DNA from: Shigella phage A2
Direction: 5' to 3' (one strand)
Length of the DNA stretch: 64,000 bases
Sequence record: OP197928
The translations under genes and the position numbers were made by a program. Positions 6,375 to 14,594 of the stretch are shown piece by piece. How positions within the stretch are numbered: the first letter of the stretch is position 1; each line of letters opens with the position of its first letter. The notes beneath the pieces are model-generated. The model made no database searches, had not been told where the DNA came from, and saw only the letters and a list, made by a program, of their open reading frames with translations.

Positions 6375-7940
6375 ATGACTATCAAAACTAAAGCTGAACT
6401 TTTGAACAAATGGAAACCATTACTGGAAGGTGAAGGTTTACCGGAAATTGCTAATAGCAAACAAGCGATTATCGCTAAAATCTTTGAAAACCAGGAAAAA
6501 GATTTCCAGACAGCTCCAGAGTACAAAGACGAAAAAATTGCTCAGGCGTTCGGTTCTTTCTTAACAGAAGCTGAAATCGGTGGTGATCACGGTTACAACG
6601 CTACTAACATTGCTGCTGGTCAGACTTCTGGCGCAGTAACTCAGATTGGCCCAGCTGTTATGGGTATGGTACGTCGTGCTATTCCTAACCTGATTGCTTT
6701 CGATATTTGTGGTGTTCAGCCGATGAACAGCCCGACTGGCCAGGTATTCGCACTGCGTGCAGTATATGGTAAAGACCCAATCGCTTCCGGTGCTAAAGAA
6801 GCATTCCACCCAATGTATGGTCCAGATGCAATGTTCTCTGGTCAGGGTGCTGCTAAGAAATTCCCAGCTTTGGCTGCTAGTACACAAACCGTTGTGGGTG
6901 ATATCTATACTCACTTCTTCCAGGAAACTGGTACTGTGTATCTGCAAGCTTCCGCTGTAGTAACAATCGATGCTAGTGCTAACGATGCAACTAAACTGGA
7001 TGCTGAAATTAAGAAACAAATGGAAGCTGGCGTACTGGTAGAAATCGCTGAAGGTATGGCTACTTCTATCGCTGAACTCCAGGAAGGTTTCAACGGTTCT
7101 ACCGATAACCCATGGAATGAAATGGGCTTCCGTATCGATAAACAAGTTATCGAAGCTAAATCTCGTCAGCTGAAAGCTGCTTACTCTATCGAATTAGCAC
7201 AAGACCTCCGCGCTGTTCACGGTATGGATGCTGATGCTGAACTGTCTGGTATTCTGGCTACCGAAATCATGCTGGAAATCAACCGCGAAGTTGTTGATTG
7301 GATTAACTACTCAGCTCAGGTTGGTAAATCTGGTATGACCCTGACTCCGGGTTCTAAAGCTGGCGTATTTGACTTCCAGGATCCGATTGATATTCGTGGT
7401 GCTCGCTGGGCGGGTGAATCCTTTAAAGCTCTGTTGTTCCAGATTGACAAAGAAGCAGTTGAAATTGCTCGTCAGACCGGTCGCGGTGAAGGTAACTTCA
7501 TTATCGCTTCCCGTAACGTAGTTAACGTTCTGGCTTCAGTTGATACTGGCATTTCTTATGCTGCACAGGGTCTGGCTACCGGCTTTAACACTGATACTAC
7601 CAAGTCAGTATTTGCTGGTGTTCTGGGTGGTAAATACCGTGTATATATCGACCAGTATGCTAAACAGGATTATTTCACTGTAGGTTATAAAGGTCCGAAC
7701 GAAATGGATGCTGGTATTTACTACGCTCCATATGTAGCTCTGACTCCGCTGCGTGGTTCCGATCCGAAGAACTTCCAACCAGTAATGGGATTCAAAACTC
7801 GTTACGGTATCGGTATCAACCCATTTGCAGAATCCGCTGCTCAGGCTCCGGCTTCTCGCATCCAGAGCGGTATGCCTTCTATTCTGAACAGCCTTGGTAA
7901 GAACGCTTACTTCCGCCGTGTATATGTTAAAGGTATCTAA
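6375..7940 (+). CDS. 23: Major capsid protein gp23
   Basis: 521 aa; near-identical to recalled T4 gp23 (MTIKTKAELLNKWKPLLEGEGLPEIANSKQ...). Confidence 0.98.
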   Translation: MTIKTKAELLNKWKPLLEGEGLPEIANSKQAIIAKIFENQEKDFQTAPEYKDEKIAQAFGSFLTEAEIGGDHGYNATNIAAGQTSGAVTQIGPAVMGMVRRAIPNLIAFDICGVQPMNSPTGQVFALRAVYGKDPIASGAKEAFHPMYGPDAMFSGQGAAKKFPALAASTQTVVGDIYTHFFQETGTVYLQASAVVTIDASANDATKLDAEIKKQMEAGVLVEIAEGMATSIAELQEGFNGSTDNPWNEMGFRIDKQVIEAKSRQLKAAYSIELAQDLRAVHGMDADAELSGILATEIMLEINREVVDWINYSAQVGKSGMTLTPGSKAGVFDFQDPIDIRGARWAGESFKALLFQIDKEAVEIARQTGRGEGNFIIASRNVVNVLASVDTGISYAAQGLATGFNTDTTKSVFAGVLGGKYRVYIDQYAKQDYFTVGYKGPNEMDAGIYYAPYVALTPLRGSDPKNFQPVMGFKTRYGIGINPFAESAAQAPASRIQSGMPSILNSLGKNAYFRRVYVKGI

Positions 7941-7955
7941 TCTTTGACGATTTAA

Positions 7956-7979
7956 GGGACCTTCGGGTCCCTTTAGTTG
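7956..7979 (+). terminator. Intrinsic terminator after gene 23 (GGGACC-UUCG-GGUCCC plus U-rich tail)
   Basis: 6-bp GC stem with UUCG tetraloop followed by TTTAGTTGTTTTTAT. Confidence 0.75.
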
Positions 7980-7988
7980 TTTTTATGG

Positions 7989-7996
7989 TATAAATA
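7989..7996 (+). promoter_or_regulatory. T4-type late promoter box TATAAATA upstream of gene 24
   Basis: Exact TATAAATA 28 nt upstream of ATG 8024. Confidence 0.6.
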
Positions 7997-8023
7997 AATC
8001 ATATAAACTGAAAGGAAAGCGCA

Positions 8024-9313: not shown

Positions 9314-9338
9314 GGGACCTTTCGGTCCCTTTTTATTT
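9314..9338. terminator. Bidirectional hairpin terminator between convergent genes 24 and rnlB
   Basis: GGGACC-TTTC-GGTCCC followed by TTTTTATTT on plus; sits between convergent ORF ends. Confidence 0.7.
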
Positions 9339-10341
9339 AACTTACCAATTCAATCCAAGCCGGACGAAGTACATCTTGTACCATTTTAACTAATTCCTTT
9401 TTAATCAAAGAAGGATTATCCGCTTGAGTTAGAGTAATACCTTCACGAGAAGTTTCTTCCAAAATATCTTGAACAGTTAGTCCCATCACCTTTCCAAAAT
9501 CTTTTGGACCAATTTCGCCAATTTTAGAAATAACGTTATTTACTCGGTTTAGTGTAACGTAACAAGCTAAAATCCCCACCAATTTGTTATCAGCTTCTGA
9601 TAGTTCAACTTTAGCTTTAATAGGCTTATCAGACTTTTTCTTTTCACTAAATTTAGAATTCTTGCATTTGATGGCTACACGATTGCGATTAGGCAGCCAA
9701 GAAGGATAACAAGGTTTCAATACATATCCTTCAGCGGTAAATACTTCGCCTTTGGCTTCAGCTTTCCAAACACATTTATTAGCGTCAATTAAACCTGCAT
9801 TATCTACGGTAAAATTATAAGACGGAACAACAGAATCCAAATCATTTGGAAGTTTAATAAGATCTTCAAATTTACCACGACCCAAAAGTGGAGCGATTTT
9901 AAACCCAAATGAATTACAAAACGATTCCATCATGTAATCATCGACATAAGTCACATCGCCACTTTCTGTAGTGACAATAATGTCAAATACATAAAAATCT
10001 TTATCGCCATAATCAACATTCTTCTGAATGCCAGGTCCAGCGAATTCGCCAAAGACTTGATAAGATACAACCGCTGAAGTTTCCATAATATCTTGGACAG
10101 CTTTAATAGAATCTTCGTAATTCTTTAGAATAATTTCATACCCAAAGAAATCTTCAGCAGGAAGAATCGGTCCAGTACGTTTAGCGCAAGTTACTTTATC
10201 ACGCTCAATAATCAAAGAAAAGTTTGTTCCATGAATTTTTTCACGAGCTACCCATTCGCCGCCAGTCAATCCCAAGCTATAAAGTTTTTCAATAAATTTA
10301 GAGTTGTAATGATTTTCAAGACTGCTATACTTTTTAAACAT
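9337..10341 (-). CDS. rnlB: RNA ligase 2 (gp24.1, RnlB)
   Basis: 334 aa; nucleotidyltransferase lysine motif ([10 protein letters not shown]); matches recalled T4 Rnl2. Confidence 0.9.
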
Positions 10342-10350
10342 AATTAATCC

Positions 10351-10629
10351 TCAAAATGTAATTTCTAACCAATCACCATCACGCTGATCACTATTGACTT
10401 TAAAGCTGAATCCTTCTTTTCTCAGCCAATCACCAATTTCTTCAGTAATCAATTTATCGCGAGCAGTACAATAATAACTAAAATATGTTTTACCTTGTTC
10501 AGCTGCTTTATTAGCAAGTTCTGAAAAATCTTTAATAAAACACTCTAGCTTAAACTGTTTACTTTTTAATGCTTTTTCACGTAATTGATTAGCAAAAGAT
10601 TCATTTTCATAAAGATCATACTGTTCCAT
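10351..10629 (-). CDS. Hypothetical protein (T4 24.2 position)
   Basis: 92-aa ORF downstream of hoc, tightly packed. Confidence 0.6.
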   Translation of the reverse strand: MEQYDLYENESFANQLREKALKSKQFKLECFIKDFSELANKAAEQGKTYFSYYCTARDKLITEEIGDWLRKEGFSFKVNSDQRDGDWLEITF

Positions 10630-10831
10630 TTTTCACCTTTTTATTAATATGTCTTTTTCTATAGACAACTTTTTCTCGAGTTTCAAATTTATTCTTAGCA
10701 GTCATAGCTCGAGCCCATAATACAGCCACTTCTTTCGCCTGTAAGTTTAATTCACGAGCAATTTCAATGAATGACTTTCCAGACTCATGAAGAGTAAACA
10801 CCACAACCTCAGTTCTCATAATCAATCTCAT
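10616..10831 (-). CDS. Hypothetical small protein (T4 24.3 position)
   Basis: 71-aa ORF; start codon uncertain (alternative internal Met). Confidence 0.5.
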   Translation of the reverse strand: MRLIMRTEVVVFTLHESGKSFIEIARELNLQAKEVAVLWARAMTAKNKFETREKVVYRKRHINKKVKNGTV

Positions 10832-10920: not shown

Positions 10921-12342
10921 TTATGGATAGGTATAGATGATACCAGTTTCTAAAGCAGTTTTATGAATGATGTATCCATTACGTGATTCTTGAACATCAA
11001 CTTCTGGATAGTCTTTCATCATCTTCTGAAGCGTATAACGATGCAAGTAGTATTTACTATCTGGATCGTCAGTTTTCCAATCTTTACCTTCTTCGGTCAT
11101 TTTTTGGATTTCATCCATAACCCACCAACCACACCAGATGTAAGCTGAAGTACGATGTGGAAGAGGATGAACATAAGGTAATTCACCTTCTGGCTCTGGA
11201 GCAACTTTATCAGTTACCTGAACTTGACCTTCCGCCGTAATAGTTTTGCTATCATAATCAGCAGCAGCAGTAACAGTTGCAGTAACTTCAATAGTTTGAC
11301 TTCCAATAGATGAGGTATCAACGGTATATACATTAGTTGACCCTTCTACAGGAGAAGAATCTTTCTTCCATGAATACGCAATTTGCGCTTCTTCTGGAGC
11401 ATCAGTGACATTAGCAGTAAATGTAGCCGAAGCATCTTGTTGAACGTTAATAGAAGGAGGAGTCAATGTAACCTGTGGATTCATTGTCTTCTTATTAACT
11501 GTTAATGATACTTCATTCGAAGTAACTTCCTTTTCATTGTAATTTTCAGCAGTTACTTGGGCTACGCATTTAATTCTTTTTACTCCACTTGTAGTTGGAG
11601 TATAGCTAAATGTAGAGTTAGTTTCTCCACCAACTTGTGAATCATCTACATACCACTGATACGTAGCAGATGCTCCATCAGGTTGAGAAGCTAAGGCAGC
11701 AGTAAATTGAACTGGTGTTCCAATTACTCCAGCTGAAGGACTATCGGGAGTTACTGCCAAAGTAGTTGTCTGTGTCTTTTTATTAACAGTCAATGACACT
11801 TCATTAGAAGTAACTTCTTTTGCATCATAATCTGTCGCGGTTACTTGAGCCACACACTTGATTGTTTTAACTCCGCTTGTGTCAGGAGTGTAATTGAATG
11901 TAGCGCTAGTCGCTTCGCTCACAGGAGAACCGTCAACGTACCATTGATACGTAGCAGATGCGCCTGATGGCTGCGAAGCCAAAGCAGCGGTAAATTCAAC
12001 AGCTGTTCCGATTACTCCTTCCGGAGGACTATTAGGAGTTACGGCTAAGGTAGTCGTCTGTGTCTTATTTTGAACTGTGATAGTTGTACTAATTTCAGCT
12101 GTTTCGGGACTACTATCGGCAACTTGATTTGTTGCAACTACTTTAATAGTCTTTTGACCGGCAGGTCCTTTTAATACATAACTAAAAGTTGCTTCAGCTC
12201 CATCTTGTGGAACATCATCAACAGTCCAAGCATATGTAATAGGTCCATCTCCAGTTTGACCACTGGGCGTAGCAGTAAACTGCTGAGTCTGATCTATAAC
12301 TCCAGTAGGTGTTTTAGGAGTTATATCAACTGTAAAAGCCAT
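10921..12342 (-). CDS. hoc: Highly immunogenic outer capsid protein Hoc, with one extra Ig-like domain
   Basis: 473 aa; N- and C-terminal regions match recalled T4 Hoc (376 aa); two tandem about 96-aa Ig-like repeats. Confidence 0.9.
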   Translation of the reverse strand: MAFTVDITPKTPTGVIDQTQQFTATPSGQTGDGPITYAWTVDDVPQDGAEATFSYVLKGPAGQKTIKVVATNQVADSSPETAEISTTITVQNKTQTTTLAVTPNSPPEGVIGTAVEFTAALASQPSGASATYQWYVDGSPVSEATSATFNYTPDTSGVKTIKCVAQVTATDYDAKEVTSNEVSLTVNKKTQTTTLAVTPDSPSAGVIGTPVQFTAALASQPDGASATYQWYVDDSQVGGETNSTFSYTPTTSGVKRIKCVAQVTAENYNEKEVTSNEVSLTVNKKTMNPQVTLTPPSINVQQDASATFTANVTDAPEEAQIAYSWKKDSSPVEGSTNVYTVDTSSIGSQTIEVTATVTAAADYDSKTITAEGQVQVTDKVAPEPEGELPYVHPLPHRTSAYIWCGWWVMDEIQKMTEEGKDWKTDDPDSKYYLHRYTLQKMMKDYPEVDVQESRNGYIIHKTALETGIIYTYP

Positions 12343-12351
12343 AAGTTATCC

Positions 12352-13032
12352 TTATTTTAATGTTACGAAAGAAGAATTGCGTGTTTCACGAATTAAAACT
12401 GATCCGTCACGGTTAATGTAATAAATTAAGCTAAATAATGTTTGGTGTGCAGAAGCATGCTCAAAACTAGTTGGGTGAGATTTCCAATCCGGAGTTTCAG
12501 CGATCCATTGATAAATCCACCAAGGAACAGTACAGAATCCTGGATTTTTTCCAATCAACTGAAGATTCGGGCTAAAGTTTTCCGGAAGAGTAAATACAGA
12601 CGGCTTTTCAGATTCAATAATCTCAGCTACAGCCTGTTCGAATTTTTCTTCAACAAAAGGAGTATCTTCAATCAAAACATCGGTATTTTCAGGAATTTTA
12701 TCCGTTTCTACTACTTCAATTTTAATGTCAGATTTAACTGGAGAATCAATCAAAAGTGCTGCTTCTGGATTGACTTCTTCATCGTCATATTTTAATCCCT
12801 CTGCAGCATCAGCAGCATCAATTAAGTCTTTAATAGATAACCCATCAGTCTCTGGCATAGGTTCACTAGCGAGCTTCTGGAGGGCTTCTTCAATATCAAC
12901 AACGATATTATCAAAAGATTTATTCTTTTTGACCTTTATACCAAACTGTTCAGCATATTCAGCTAATTTAGCTTTAGCTTCTTTATTATCATCAAGAGCC
13001 TTCAGCTCTGCAATATAATCTTTATCTATCAT
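12352..13032 (-). CDS. inh: Inh, inhibitor of prohead protease gp21
   Basis: 226 aa, T4 Inh size and hoc-inh-uvsW position. Confidence 0.75.
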   Translation of the reverse strand: MIDKDYIAELKALDDNKEAKAKLAEYAEQFGIKVKKNKSFDNIVVDIEEALQKLASEPMPETDGLSIKDLIDAADAAEGLKYDDEEVNPEAALLIDSPVKSDIKIEVVETDKIPENTDVLIEDTPFVEEKFEQAVAEIIESEKPSVFTLPENFSPNLQLIGKNPGFCTVPWWIYQWIAETPDWKSHPTSFEHASAHQTLFSLIYYINRDGSVLIRETRNSSFVTLK

Positions 13033-13045
13033 AATATTTCCTCAG

Positions 13046-13053
13046 TATAAATA
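13046..13053 (+). promoter_or_regulatory. T4-type late promoter box TATAAATA upstream of uvsW
   Basis: Exact TATAAATA 30 nt upstream of uvsW ATG 13083. Confidence 0.55.
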
Positions 13054-13082
13054 TAGATATATTTATTACATGGTATTTAGAC

Positions 13083-14594
13083 ATGACTGACATTAAAGTA
13101 CATTTTTATGATTTTAGTCACGTGAGAATTGATTGTGAAGAAAGTACATTTCATGAACTCCGTGATTTCTTTAGCTTTGAAGCTGATGGGTATCGTTTTA
13201 ATCCGAAATACAAATATGGCCACTGGGATGGACGAATCCGTCTTTTAGATTATAATCGTCTTCTTCCATTCGGCTTAGTCGGGCAAATTAAAAAGTTCTG
13301 TGATAACTTTGGCTATAAAGCCTGGATTGACCCACAAATTAACGAAAAAGAAGAATTATCAAGAAAAGATTTTGATGAATGGCTTTCTAAATTAGAAATC
13401 TATTCAGGAAATAAAAGAATTGAACCACACTGGTATCAAAAAGATGCAGTGTTCGAAGGATTAGTCAATCGTCGTAGAATTCTTAATCTTCCAACATCCG
13501 CTGGTAAATCGTTAATTCAAGCTTTGCTTGCGCGATATTATTTGGAAAATTATGAAGGTAAAATTCTTATCATTGTTCCAACAACTGCTCTAACAACTCA
13601 GATGGCTGATGACTTCGTTGACTATCGTTTATTCAGTCATGCAATGATAAAGAAAATTGGTGGCGGAGCATCAAAAGATGATAAATATAAAAATGATGCA
13701 CCAGTCGTTGTTGGTACATGGCAAACTGTAGTAAAACAACCGAAAGAATGGTTCTCACAGTTTGGAATGATGATGAATGATGAATGCCATCTTGCTACAG
13801 GAAAAAGTATTTCATCTATCATATCAGGTTTAAATAACTGTATGTTTAAATTTGGTTTGTCTGGTTCATTACGTGATGGCAAAGCTAATATCATGCAGTA
13901 TGTTGGAATGTTTGGTGAAATATTTAAGCCAGTAACGACCTCTAAATTAATGGAAGATGGACAAGTAACTGAGTTAAAAATTAATAGTATTTTTCTTCGC
14001 TATCCCGATGAGTTCACTACTAAATTAAAGGGAAAAACTTACCAAGAAGAAATAAAAATTATTACGGGGCTTAGTAAAAGAAATAAATGGATCGCTAAAT
14101 TAGCTATTAAGCTTGCGCAAAAAGATGAAAACGCTTTTGTCATGTTTAAGCATGTATCACATGGTAAAGCTATTTTCGATTTAATTAAAAATGAATACGA
14201 TAAAGTTTATTACGTATCAGGGGAAGTTGATACCGAAACCCGCAATATAATGAAAACCTTAGCTGAAAACGGTAAAGGAATAATTATAGTAGCTAGTTAT
14301 GGTGTATTTTCTACTGGTATTTCAGTTAAAAATCTGCATCACGTTGTTTTAGCACACGGTGTTAAATCTAAAATTATTGTATTGCAAACAATAGGTCGCG
14401 TATTACGTAAGCATGGTTCTAAAACAATCGCAACAGTCTGGGACCTCATCGATGATTGTGGTGTTAAGCCAAAATCTGCTAATACGAAAAAGAAATATGT
14501 TCATTTGAACTATCTTTTAAAACACGGCATTGATCGTATTCAGCGCTACGCAGATGAAAAATTTAATTACGTAATGAAAACAGTTAATTTATAA
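13083..14594 (+). CDS. uvsW: UvsW ATP-dependent DNA/RNA helicase
   Basis: 503 aa; Walker A (PTSAGKS), DEAH-like (NDECH), helicase motif VI region; matches T4 UvsW. Confidence 0.95.
   Translation: MTDIKVHFYDFSHVRIDCEESTFHELRDFFSFEADGYRFNPKYKYGHWDGRIRLLDYNRLLPFGLVGQIKKFCDNFGYKAWIDPQINEKEELSRKDFDEWLSKLEIYSGNKRIEPHWYQKDAVFEGLVNRRRILNLPTSAGKSLIQALLARYYLENYEGKILIIVPTTALTTQMADDFVDYRLFSHAMIKKIGGGASKDDKYKNDAPVVVGTWQTVVKQPKEWFSQFGMMMNDECHLATGKSISSIISGLNNCMFKFGLSGSLRDGKANIMQYVGMFGEIFKPVTTSKLMEDGQVTELKINSIFLRYPDEFTTKLKGKTYQEEIKIITGLSKRNKWIAKLAIKLAQKDENAFVMFKHVSHGKAIFDLIKNEYDKVYYVSGEVDTETRNIMKTLAENGKGIIIVASYGVFSTGISVKNLHHVVLAHGVKSKIIVLQTIGRVLRKHGSKTIATVWDLIDDCGVKPKSANTKKKYVHLNYLLKHGIDRIQRYADEKFNYVMKTVNL

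Follow-up and report, generated by a model that had tools for sequence, protein, structure and literature searches.

Hoc is a monomeric fibre whose C-terminal domain plugs into the centre of the gp23 hexamer and whose Ig-like domains project outward. T4 display and vaccine work is built on it, and among the candidates for phage adherence to mucus it is the best studied. T4 Hoc forms a linear fibre of four domains, ~180 Å long, and is dispensable in the laboratory (PMC10385173). Hoc homologues carry 1 to 10 Ig-like domains; the aromatic residues, Arg300, Asp313 and the ESRNG loop are conserved in the capsid-binding domain, and residues 326-344 of gp23 form the Hoc contact region (PMC10385173). 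In the three-domain Hoc variant of PhiPNJ-9, the D2 residues S183, L184 and T185 have been mapped as the MUC2-fucose contact (PMC11853027). Here we describe the hoc gene of Shigella phage A2 (OP197928), as found in a stretch of 64,000 nucleotides (the window), and compare its domain content with that of other T4-type phages.

The hoc gene and its domain architecture

The first 25 kb of the window share 97-98% identity with many Tequatrovirus genomes, and the gene order rnlB, 24.2, 24.3, hoc, inh, uvsW is the T4 order. The hoc gene sits between inh and 24.3, which is the T4 arrangement. Its product matches PHROG 1149 ('Hoc-like head decoration') with an E value of 1e-140 and the T4 Hoc chains in the PDB (5vf3, 8t1x and others) with an E value of 9e-219. 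The genes concerned are:

6375-7940, plus strand: gene 23, major capsid protein and docking partner of Hoc, 98% identical to T4 gp23
9337-10341: rnlB, neighbour in T4 order
10921-12342, minus strand: hoc, an ORF of 473 aa plus stop codon, supported by PHROG, PDB and T4 synteny
12352-13032, minus strand: inh, upstream neighbour of hoc in T4 gene order, 97% nt identity to T4 inh
13083-14594: uvsW, an ORF of 503 aa

Some small features of the surrounding region are recorded for completeness. uvsW encodes 503 aa in both the window and RB27; the T4 RefSeq record, which bears a note on sequence discrepancies, gives 587 aa. The 24.3 ORF (10616-10831) is longer than its annotation in T4 (71 versus 56 aa). 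The window has no homing-endonuclease gene at the T4 segD site between genes 23 and 24 (gap 7941-8023, 83 nt) or at the T4 segE site between inh and uvsW (gap 13033-13082, 50 nt). An endonuclease adjoining inh is present in teqhal and in contig L010.

The Hoc of the window is 473 aa long, compared with 376 aa (1131 nt) for T4 Hoc, in agreement with the lengths given in an earlier note made from the sequence. Pairwise alignment of the two proteins opens a single 96-aa gap, in T4, and the one extra Ig-like module that the note had proposed is also recovered as a separate domain in the AlphaFold2 (AF2) model. The domain string is D1, D2(A), D2(B), D3, D4 in the window and D1, D2(B), D3, D4 in T4. 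The domains of the window protein, in N- to C-terminal order, are:

12067-12342, minus strand: domain 1, Ig-like, aa 1-92; beta-sandwich in the AF2 model (pLDDT ~84-93), 83% aa identity to T4 D1
11779-12066, minus strand: copy A, an A-type D2, aa 93-188; found by Tandem Repeats Finder, the module that is extra relative to T4; AF2 pLDDT 89-96
11491-11778, minus strand: copy B, a B-type D2, aa 189-284; orthologue of T4 Hoc domain 2 by the module identity matrix; Pfam PKD at 195-267
11212-11490, minus strand: domain 3, Ig-like, aa 285-377; Pfam Ig_3 at 289-353, alignment to T4 and AF2 model
10924-11211, minus strand: C-terminal capsid-binding domain (D4), aa 378-473; alignment to T4 residues 281-376

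The AF2 model, which draws on 35 homologues, contains four beta-sandwich domains (residues 1-91, 93-187, 189-283 and 285-377) with pLDDT values mostly between 85 and 96. The protein therefore has four Ig-like domains, compared with exactly three in the canonical T4 Hoc. The C-terminal domain is modelled as an alpha/beta fold with low confidence (pLDDT 37-61), probably because this domain is almost invariant in the alignment; as it is unreliable in the model, the model was not used for overall geometry or length. Foldseek finds its best PDB matches in ectodomains with four Ig domains, ICAM-5 D1-D4 and Dscam among them. Among Pfam families, the PKD match (PF00801) reaches 40.2 bits against a curated cut-off of 23.5, and the Ig_3 match barely reaches its cut-off (30.1 bits against 30); the matches to Ig_2, I-set and V-set lie below the Pfam cut-offs. 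D3 contains three consecutive Ala codons at 11260-11268 (TAAADYD), one more than in T4 and the 472-aa alleles, and this extra codon makes the protein 473 aa rather than 472.

The capsid-proximal end is nearly unchanged. Within residues 378-473 there is a single change from T4, S to T in HRSSAY; the ESRNG loop and the conserved residues named in PMC10385173 are all present. Residues 326-344 of gp23 are identical between the window and T4. With the capsid-binding domain and the docking site unchanged, the usual number of Hoc fibres per particle is expected.

Similarity and selection between the two D2 modules

The repeat is detected by Tandem Repeats Finder at 11485-12066, with a period of 288, 2.0 copies, 77% matches and a score of 689. 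Comparison of the gene with itself confirms it: the protein self-match at an offset of 96 aa gives 105 identities, with a z value of ~12 relative to other offsets. The earlier note had located the same feature at 11494-12069, which is 3 nt out of register with the in-frame modules (11491-12066). It had also described the copies as nearly identical in protein and ~80% identical in DNA; both values were too high, since 76 of the 96 residues (79%) and 218 of the 288 nucleotides (75.7%) are identical between copy A and copy B. All other pairs of Ig-like domains in the protein share 30-39% identity. Since D2a and D2b are far more alike than these, they form the most recent layer in a series of internal repeats that is itself older.

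The 70 nucleotide differences between the copies fall at the first, second and third codon positions in the numbers 11, 12 and 47, and the codon differences comprise 38 synonymous and 20 non-synonymous changes. The NG86 method gives a dN of 0.12, a dS of 1.48 and a dN/dS of ~0.08; these are NG86 values only, and the dS is saturated and thus a lower bound, so that ages are only relative. Sixteen of the 20 amino acid differences lie outside the predicted strands, in loops (Fisher p = 3e-4). By this pattern of substitutions, the copies are old and held under purifying selection, with the beta-sandwich framework kept. The low dN/dS may reflect nothing beyond the need to fold.

Distribution and origin of the D2 alleles

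A megablast search of hoc against 50,697 phage records matched 684 records, 597 of them over the full length. Coverage in these matches does not distinguish the long alleles from the short ones, whose single module matches both query copies; the alleles were told apart by their span in the record and by a junction peptide. The D2-D2 junction was found in 245 records by tblastn with the 44-aa junction peptide (at least 80% of the peptide length), the remaining matches being partial, to the D2-D3 junction. Set against the 597 full-length matches, these ~245 records indicate that ~35-40% of Tequatrovirus-type hoc genes carry at least two modules, in a database that is redundant and whose sampling is biased. 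A systematic sample taken down the megablast ranking contained ~17 long (1419 nt) and 32 short (1131 nt) hoc genes. Among the best 120 protein clusters, 81 are ~376 aa, 30 are 468-472 aa and 9 are 567-570 aa long. The survey of domain number that the earlier note proposed thus yielded an answer across T4-type genomes: the size classes of ~376, ~472 and 567-570 aa correspond to one, two and three D2 modules.

The two-D2 architecture also occurs in many metagenome contigs. In IMG/VR, a collection with few T4-type contigs, a degenerate DNA pattern for the D2-D2 junction gave a single match. The junction SLTVNK/KTQTTT is present in the Hoc of the window, which places it in the two-D2 allele class. 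The rarity that the earlier note had implied does not hold, given the ~245 phage records with this junction: the hoc gene of the window is an ordinary, already catalogued two-D2 allele, with nothing unexpected about it.

The abundance of this architecture also bears on the concern that the repeat was expanded or mis-joined during assembly. Beyond the general risk that tandem repeats pose to assembly, nothing speaks for such an artefact. With 70 differences in 288 nucleotides and exact shared runs of at most 17 nt, the copies would be neither merged nor multiplied by an assembler. In addition, the hoc ORF is intact, and ~245 independent phage records, RB27 among them, have a hoc gene with this 1419-nt layout, as do many metagenome contigs. 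An architecture present in hundreds of public records is therefore neither artefactual nor rare; we regard the chance of an assembly error as negligible, as the earlier note had also judged.

To place the two copies among the modules of other phages, we compared D2 modules in a DNA identity matrix, which resolves two clades. The A clade (84-99% nt identity) includes the first modules of the window, teqhal, RB27 and the three-copy gene of UGKSEcP1, together with the sole module of HX01. The B clade (86-100%) includes the second modules of the multi-copy genes and the sole module of T4. Identity between the clades is 75-79% nt, and each of them includes modules from one-, two- and three-copy genes. 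Copy A is 99% identical in DNA to module 1 of teqhal, 92% to module 1 of RB27 and 90% to the single module of HX01. Copy B is 91-100% identical to the T4, RB27 and teqhal modules; relative to T4 D2 it shows 91% nt identity, 92% aa identity and a dS of 0.23, compared with 78.5% nt identity and a dS of 0.85 for copy A.

These relationships bear on the simplest account, in which D2 was duplicated once, in situ and in tandem, in the lineage of the window, and the copies then diverged under purifying selection, with the four-domain Hoc of T4 as the ancestral form. The copies are adjacent, in frame and of equal length (288 nt), they are 79% alike compared with 30-39% for other domain pairs, and a duplication must have occurred at least once in the history of hoc. 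However, copies that arose by a lineage-specific duplication should be closest to each other, whereas A and B are 76% identical in DNA, A is 90-99% identical to the RB27, teqhal and HX01 modules, and B is 91-100% identical to the T4, RB27 and teqhal modules; each copy is much closer to modules of other phages, including the sole modules of HX01 (for A) and T4 (for B), than to the copy beside it. In three different genes, A and B are separated by a dS of 1.1-1.5. The dS between the window and T4 is 0.06-0.34 for D1, D3, D4, inh, rnlB and 24.2; the synonymous divergence of the modules is ~4-10 times that of the surrounding locus compared with T4. The existence of three-copy hoc genes, and of near-identical alleles with different copy number, also argues against this account, as does the distribution of module states described below. 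We consider a single duplication in this lineage improbable. The statement of the earlier note that the repeat is an older duplication maintained under selection is therefore upheld for the age of the copies and for purifying selection (dN/dS ~0.08), and is not upheld insofar as it implies one duplication in one lineage.

Of 82 single-copy proteins, the module is A-like in 32, B-like in 36 and intermediate in 14. Scored at the 20 positions that differ between the copies in the window, single-copy modules prove to be mosaics, with blocks of A states alternating with blocks of B states. The T4 module, for instance, is B-like except at the last four marker positions. In two-copy proteins, an A-like module occupies the first position in 31 of 32 and a B-like module the second position in 28 of 32, and only 3 clustered positions consistently separate first from second modules across these 32 proteins. 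That so few positions separate the two places, and that single-copy modules are mosaic, counts against one duplication in this lineage.

One metagenome contig, the single case in which a crossover could be read from the DNA, illustrates how alleles of different copy number may be related. Contig L009 (Logan SRR14812374_604, 1501-2631), a short-read metagenome assembly, contains a single-copy hoc gene with 0 mismatches to the window across copy A and 3 mismatches in D1. Its module turns from A-like to B-like in the final ~20 nt, the pattern expected if 288 nt had been lost from an A-B tandem by deletion between the conserved ends of its modules. By its sequence the gene looks like the allele of the window with copy B deleted, a recent deletion derivative of the two-copy allele. 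D3 differs from the window at 13 positions, so the contig is not a strictly isogenic deletion derivative.

Alternatively, the tandem may have formed by unequal or illegitimate crossover between diverged A-type and B-type single-copy alleles in a mixed infection. The divergence would then precede the tandem, which might be of fairly recent origin. Single-copy genes of both types exist, T-even phages recombine heavily and the modules are mosaic; moreover, the nearly constant order of an A-like first and a B-like second module fits one founding A/B junction that later spread. Against this, recombination would have to take place at the few bases that the end of one D2 shares with the start of the other (VNK/KTQ versus VQNK/TQ), which is rare, and single-copy A or B genes are equally explicable as deletion products of the tandem, one of which contig L009 resembles. 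We regard a crossover origin as possible but doubtful. Duplication followed by divergence, and allele divergence followed by unequal crossover, predict the same present pattern.

The reading that we prefer is that D2 is an old, polymorphic cassette of 96 aa, of which phages of the genus carry one to three copies in tandem. The split between types A and B long predates the divergence of the present genomes. Both types also circulate as sole modules and as A/B block mosaics, from which we conclude that copy number and content are reshuffled by recombination, both between co-infecting phages and between tandem copies. Such a history goes beyond one duplication in the lineage of the window phage. 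Taken jointly, the identification of the gene, its architecture, the commonness of the allele and the cassette-like population pattern are put forward with high confidence, and the functional consequences with less.

A more ambitious form of the cassette reading is an adaptive system driven by recombination: A, B and a third type, all ancient, would persist as a standing polymorphism, and their combination into arrays of up to three copies would tune the fibre length and the number and kind of glycan-binding surfaces. Selection would also favour the strong synonymous divergence between neighbouring copies, since it guards the array against collapse by recombination in a highly recombinogenic phage. 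If true, the arrays would be suited to different mucosal or host-surface niches. We consider this adaptive form rather unlikely.

Further observations concern the spread of hoc modules and the state of the gene in other phages. Alleles P0047 (472 aa) and P0048 (567 aa) carry much more divergent second- or third-position modules, for example ...AVEIGTATTFTANVSNQP..., so modules have apparently also been imported from more distant Hoc lineages. Phage HX01 (JX536493; L002 925-2055), classed as Mosigvirus, carries an unannotated Tequatrovirus-type hoc gene of 376 aa with an A-type D2, whereas RB69, another Mosigvirus, matches the query in the C-terminal domain only, which suggests exchange of hoc between genera. 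In phage T2 (PV958097; L005 1063-2052), the hoc region carries annotations for three short 'Hoc-like' fragments, and in the T2 RefSeq record hoc is split in two; T2 appears to have a broken gene.

The fibre and its relation to known Hoc proteins

The additional module would lengthen the Hoc fibre by one Ig domain, or ~4-4.5 nm on top of the ~18 nm of T4, a gain that is derived from the reported length of the T4 fibre. The change in reach that the earlier note proposed is thus a reasonable expectation, although a bent or folded-back fibre would cancel it. Each D2 copy has a Ser-Leu-Thr motif near its C-terminal end:

11788-11796, minus strand: Ser183-Leu184-Thr185 at the end of copy A, identified from the sequence; residue mapping from PMC11853027, putative function
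11500-11508, minus strand: Ser279-Leu280-Thr281 at the end of copy B, identified from the sequence; same motif as in copy A

Judged by its sequence, the fibre is predicted to present two non-identical D2 surfaces, both with this motif. By analogy with the motif of PhiPNJ-9, the additional module may provide a second glycan-binding surface and may take part in mucus adhesion; in the 'bacteriophage adherence to mucus' model, mucin glycans are bound by Ig-like domains, and the diffusion of the phage through mucus is slowed. The module could instead be a functionally neutral spacer, which brings no gain in adherence or reach and is kept because a misfolded Ig domain harms the fibre. The dispensability of Hoc in the laboratory (PMC10385173) agrees with this. 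Moreover, the forms with one, two and three modules are all frequent and coexist in genomes that otherwise hardly differ, which fits weak or fluctuating selection. The concentration of amino acid differences in loops with a conserved framework, and the retention of the SLT motif in both copies, hint at the contrary. A neutral spacer is a tenable explanation, to which we assign a lesser chance.

The two-D2 architecture is already present in hundreds of public records, and variation in the number of Ig-like domains of Hoc has been published. In the literature searched, we found no description of a one-, two- or three-copy D2 polymorphism in Tequatrovirus, of the A and B module types or of a duplicated Hoc domain, which leaves a small descriptive gap. 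Natural phages with one, two or three non-identical D2 modules on an unchanged anchor provide a series in which fibre length and valency can be related to mucus binding, aggregation and immunogenicity. The D2 copy number must also be taken into account in mapping Hoc domains by residue number from phage to phage.

Compared with T4 Hoc (376 aa; NP_049793; PDB 5vf3 and 8t1x), the window gene has the same position, and its D1, D3 and D4 are orthologous to those of T4. T4 has a single D2, before which the window gene has an A-type module inserted, giving four Ig-like domains. The nearest allele is that of AdolfPortmann (MZ501046), with the same two-D2 architecture and boundaries and 98.6% DNA identity in hoc; teqhal (MN895435) shares architecture and boundaries with 98.4% identity. 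RB27 (NC_025448) has an annotated two-D2 hoc gene of 472 aa with ~92-95% DNA identity, and slur02, PhiZZ30 and others have two-D2 hoc genes of the same architecture as the window. Many other hoc records are 92-97% identical to the window with the same 1419-nt span. Relative to the two-D2 alleles of 472 aa, the window differs by one extra Ala codon in D3 and a few substitutions, and the architecture is equal.

The three-D2 Hoc proteins of Escherichia phages UGKSEcP1 and UGKSEcP2 (567-570 aa) share D1, D3 and D4 with the window and carry an A-type module followed by a B-type module. The UGKSEcP1 protein (OV877085; L006 1501-3207) has 568 aa and five Ig-like domains, and its third module is of a further type, 84% identical in DNA to B and 79% to A. 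More distant Hoc proteins change their domain count in other ways. The Hoc of PhiPNJ-9 lacks D3 and shares the Ser-Leu-Thr of D2 with the window (PMC11853027). Among Hoc-like proteins with 1 to 10 Ig-like domains, such as that of Serratia phage Muldoon, the C-terminal anchor is conserved and the number of Ig-like domains is variable (PMC10385173). In proteins of the PhiPNJ-9 and Muldoon types, whose sequences are far more divergent, the domain count thus changes by loss of D3 or by the presence of many more distant domains, rather than by the tandem D2 modules seen in the window.
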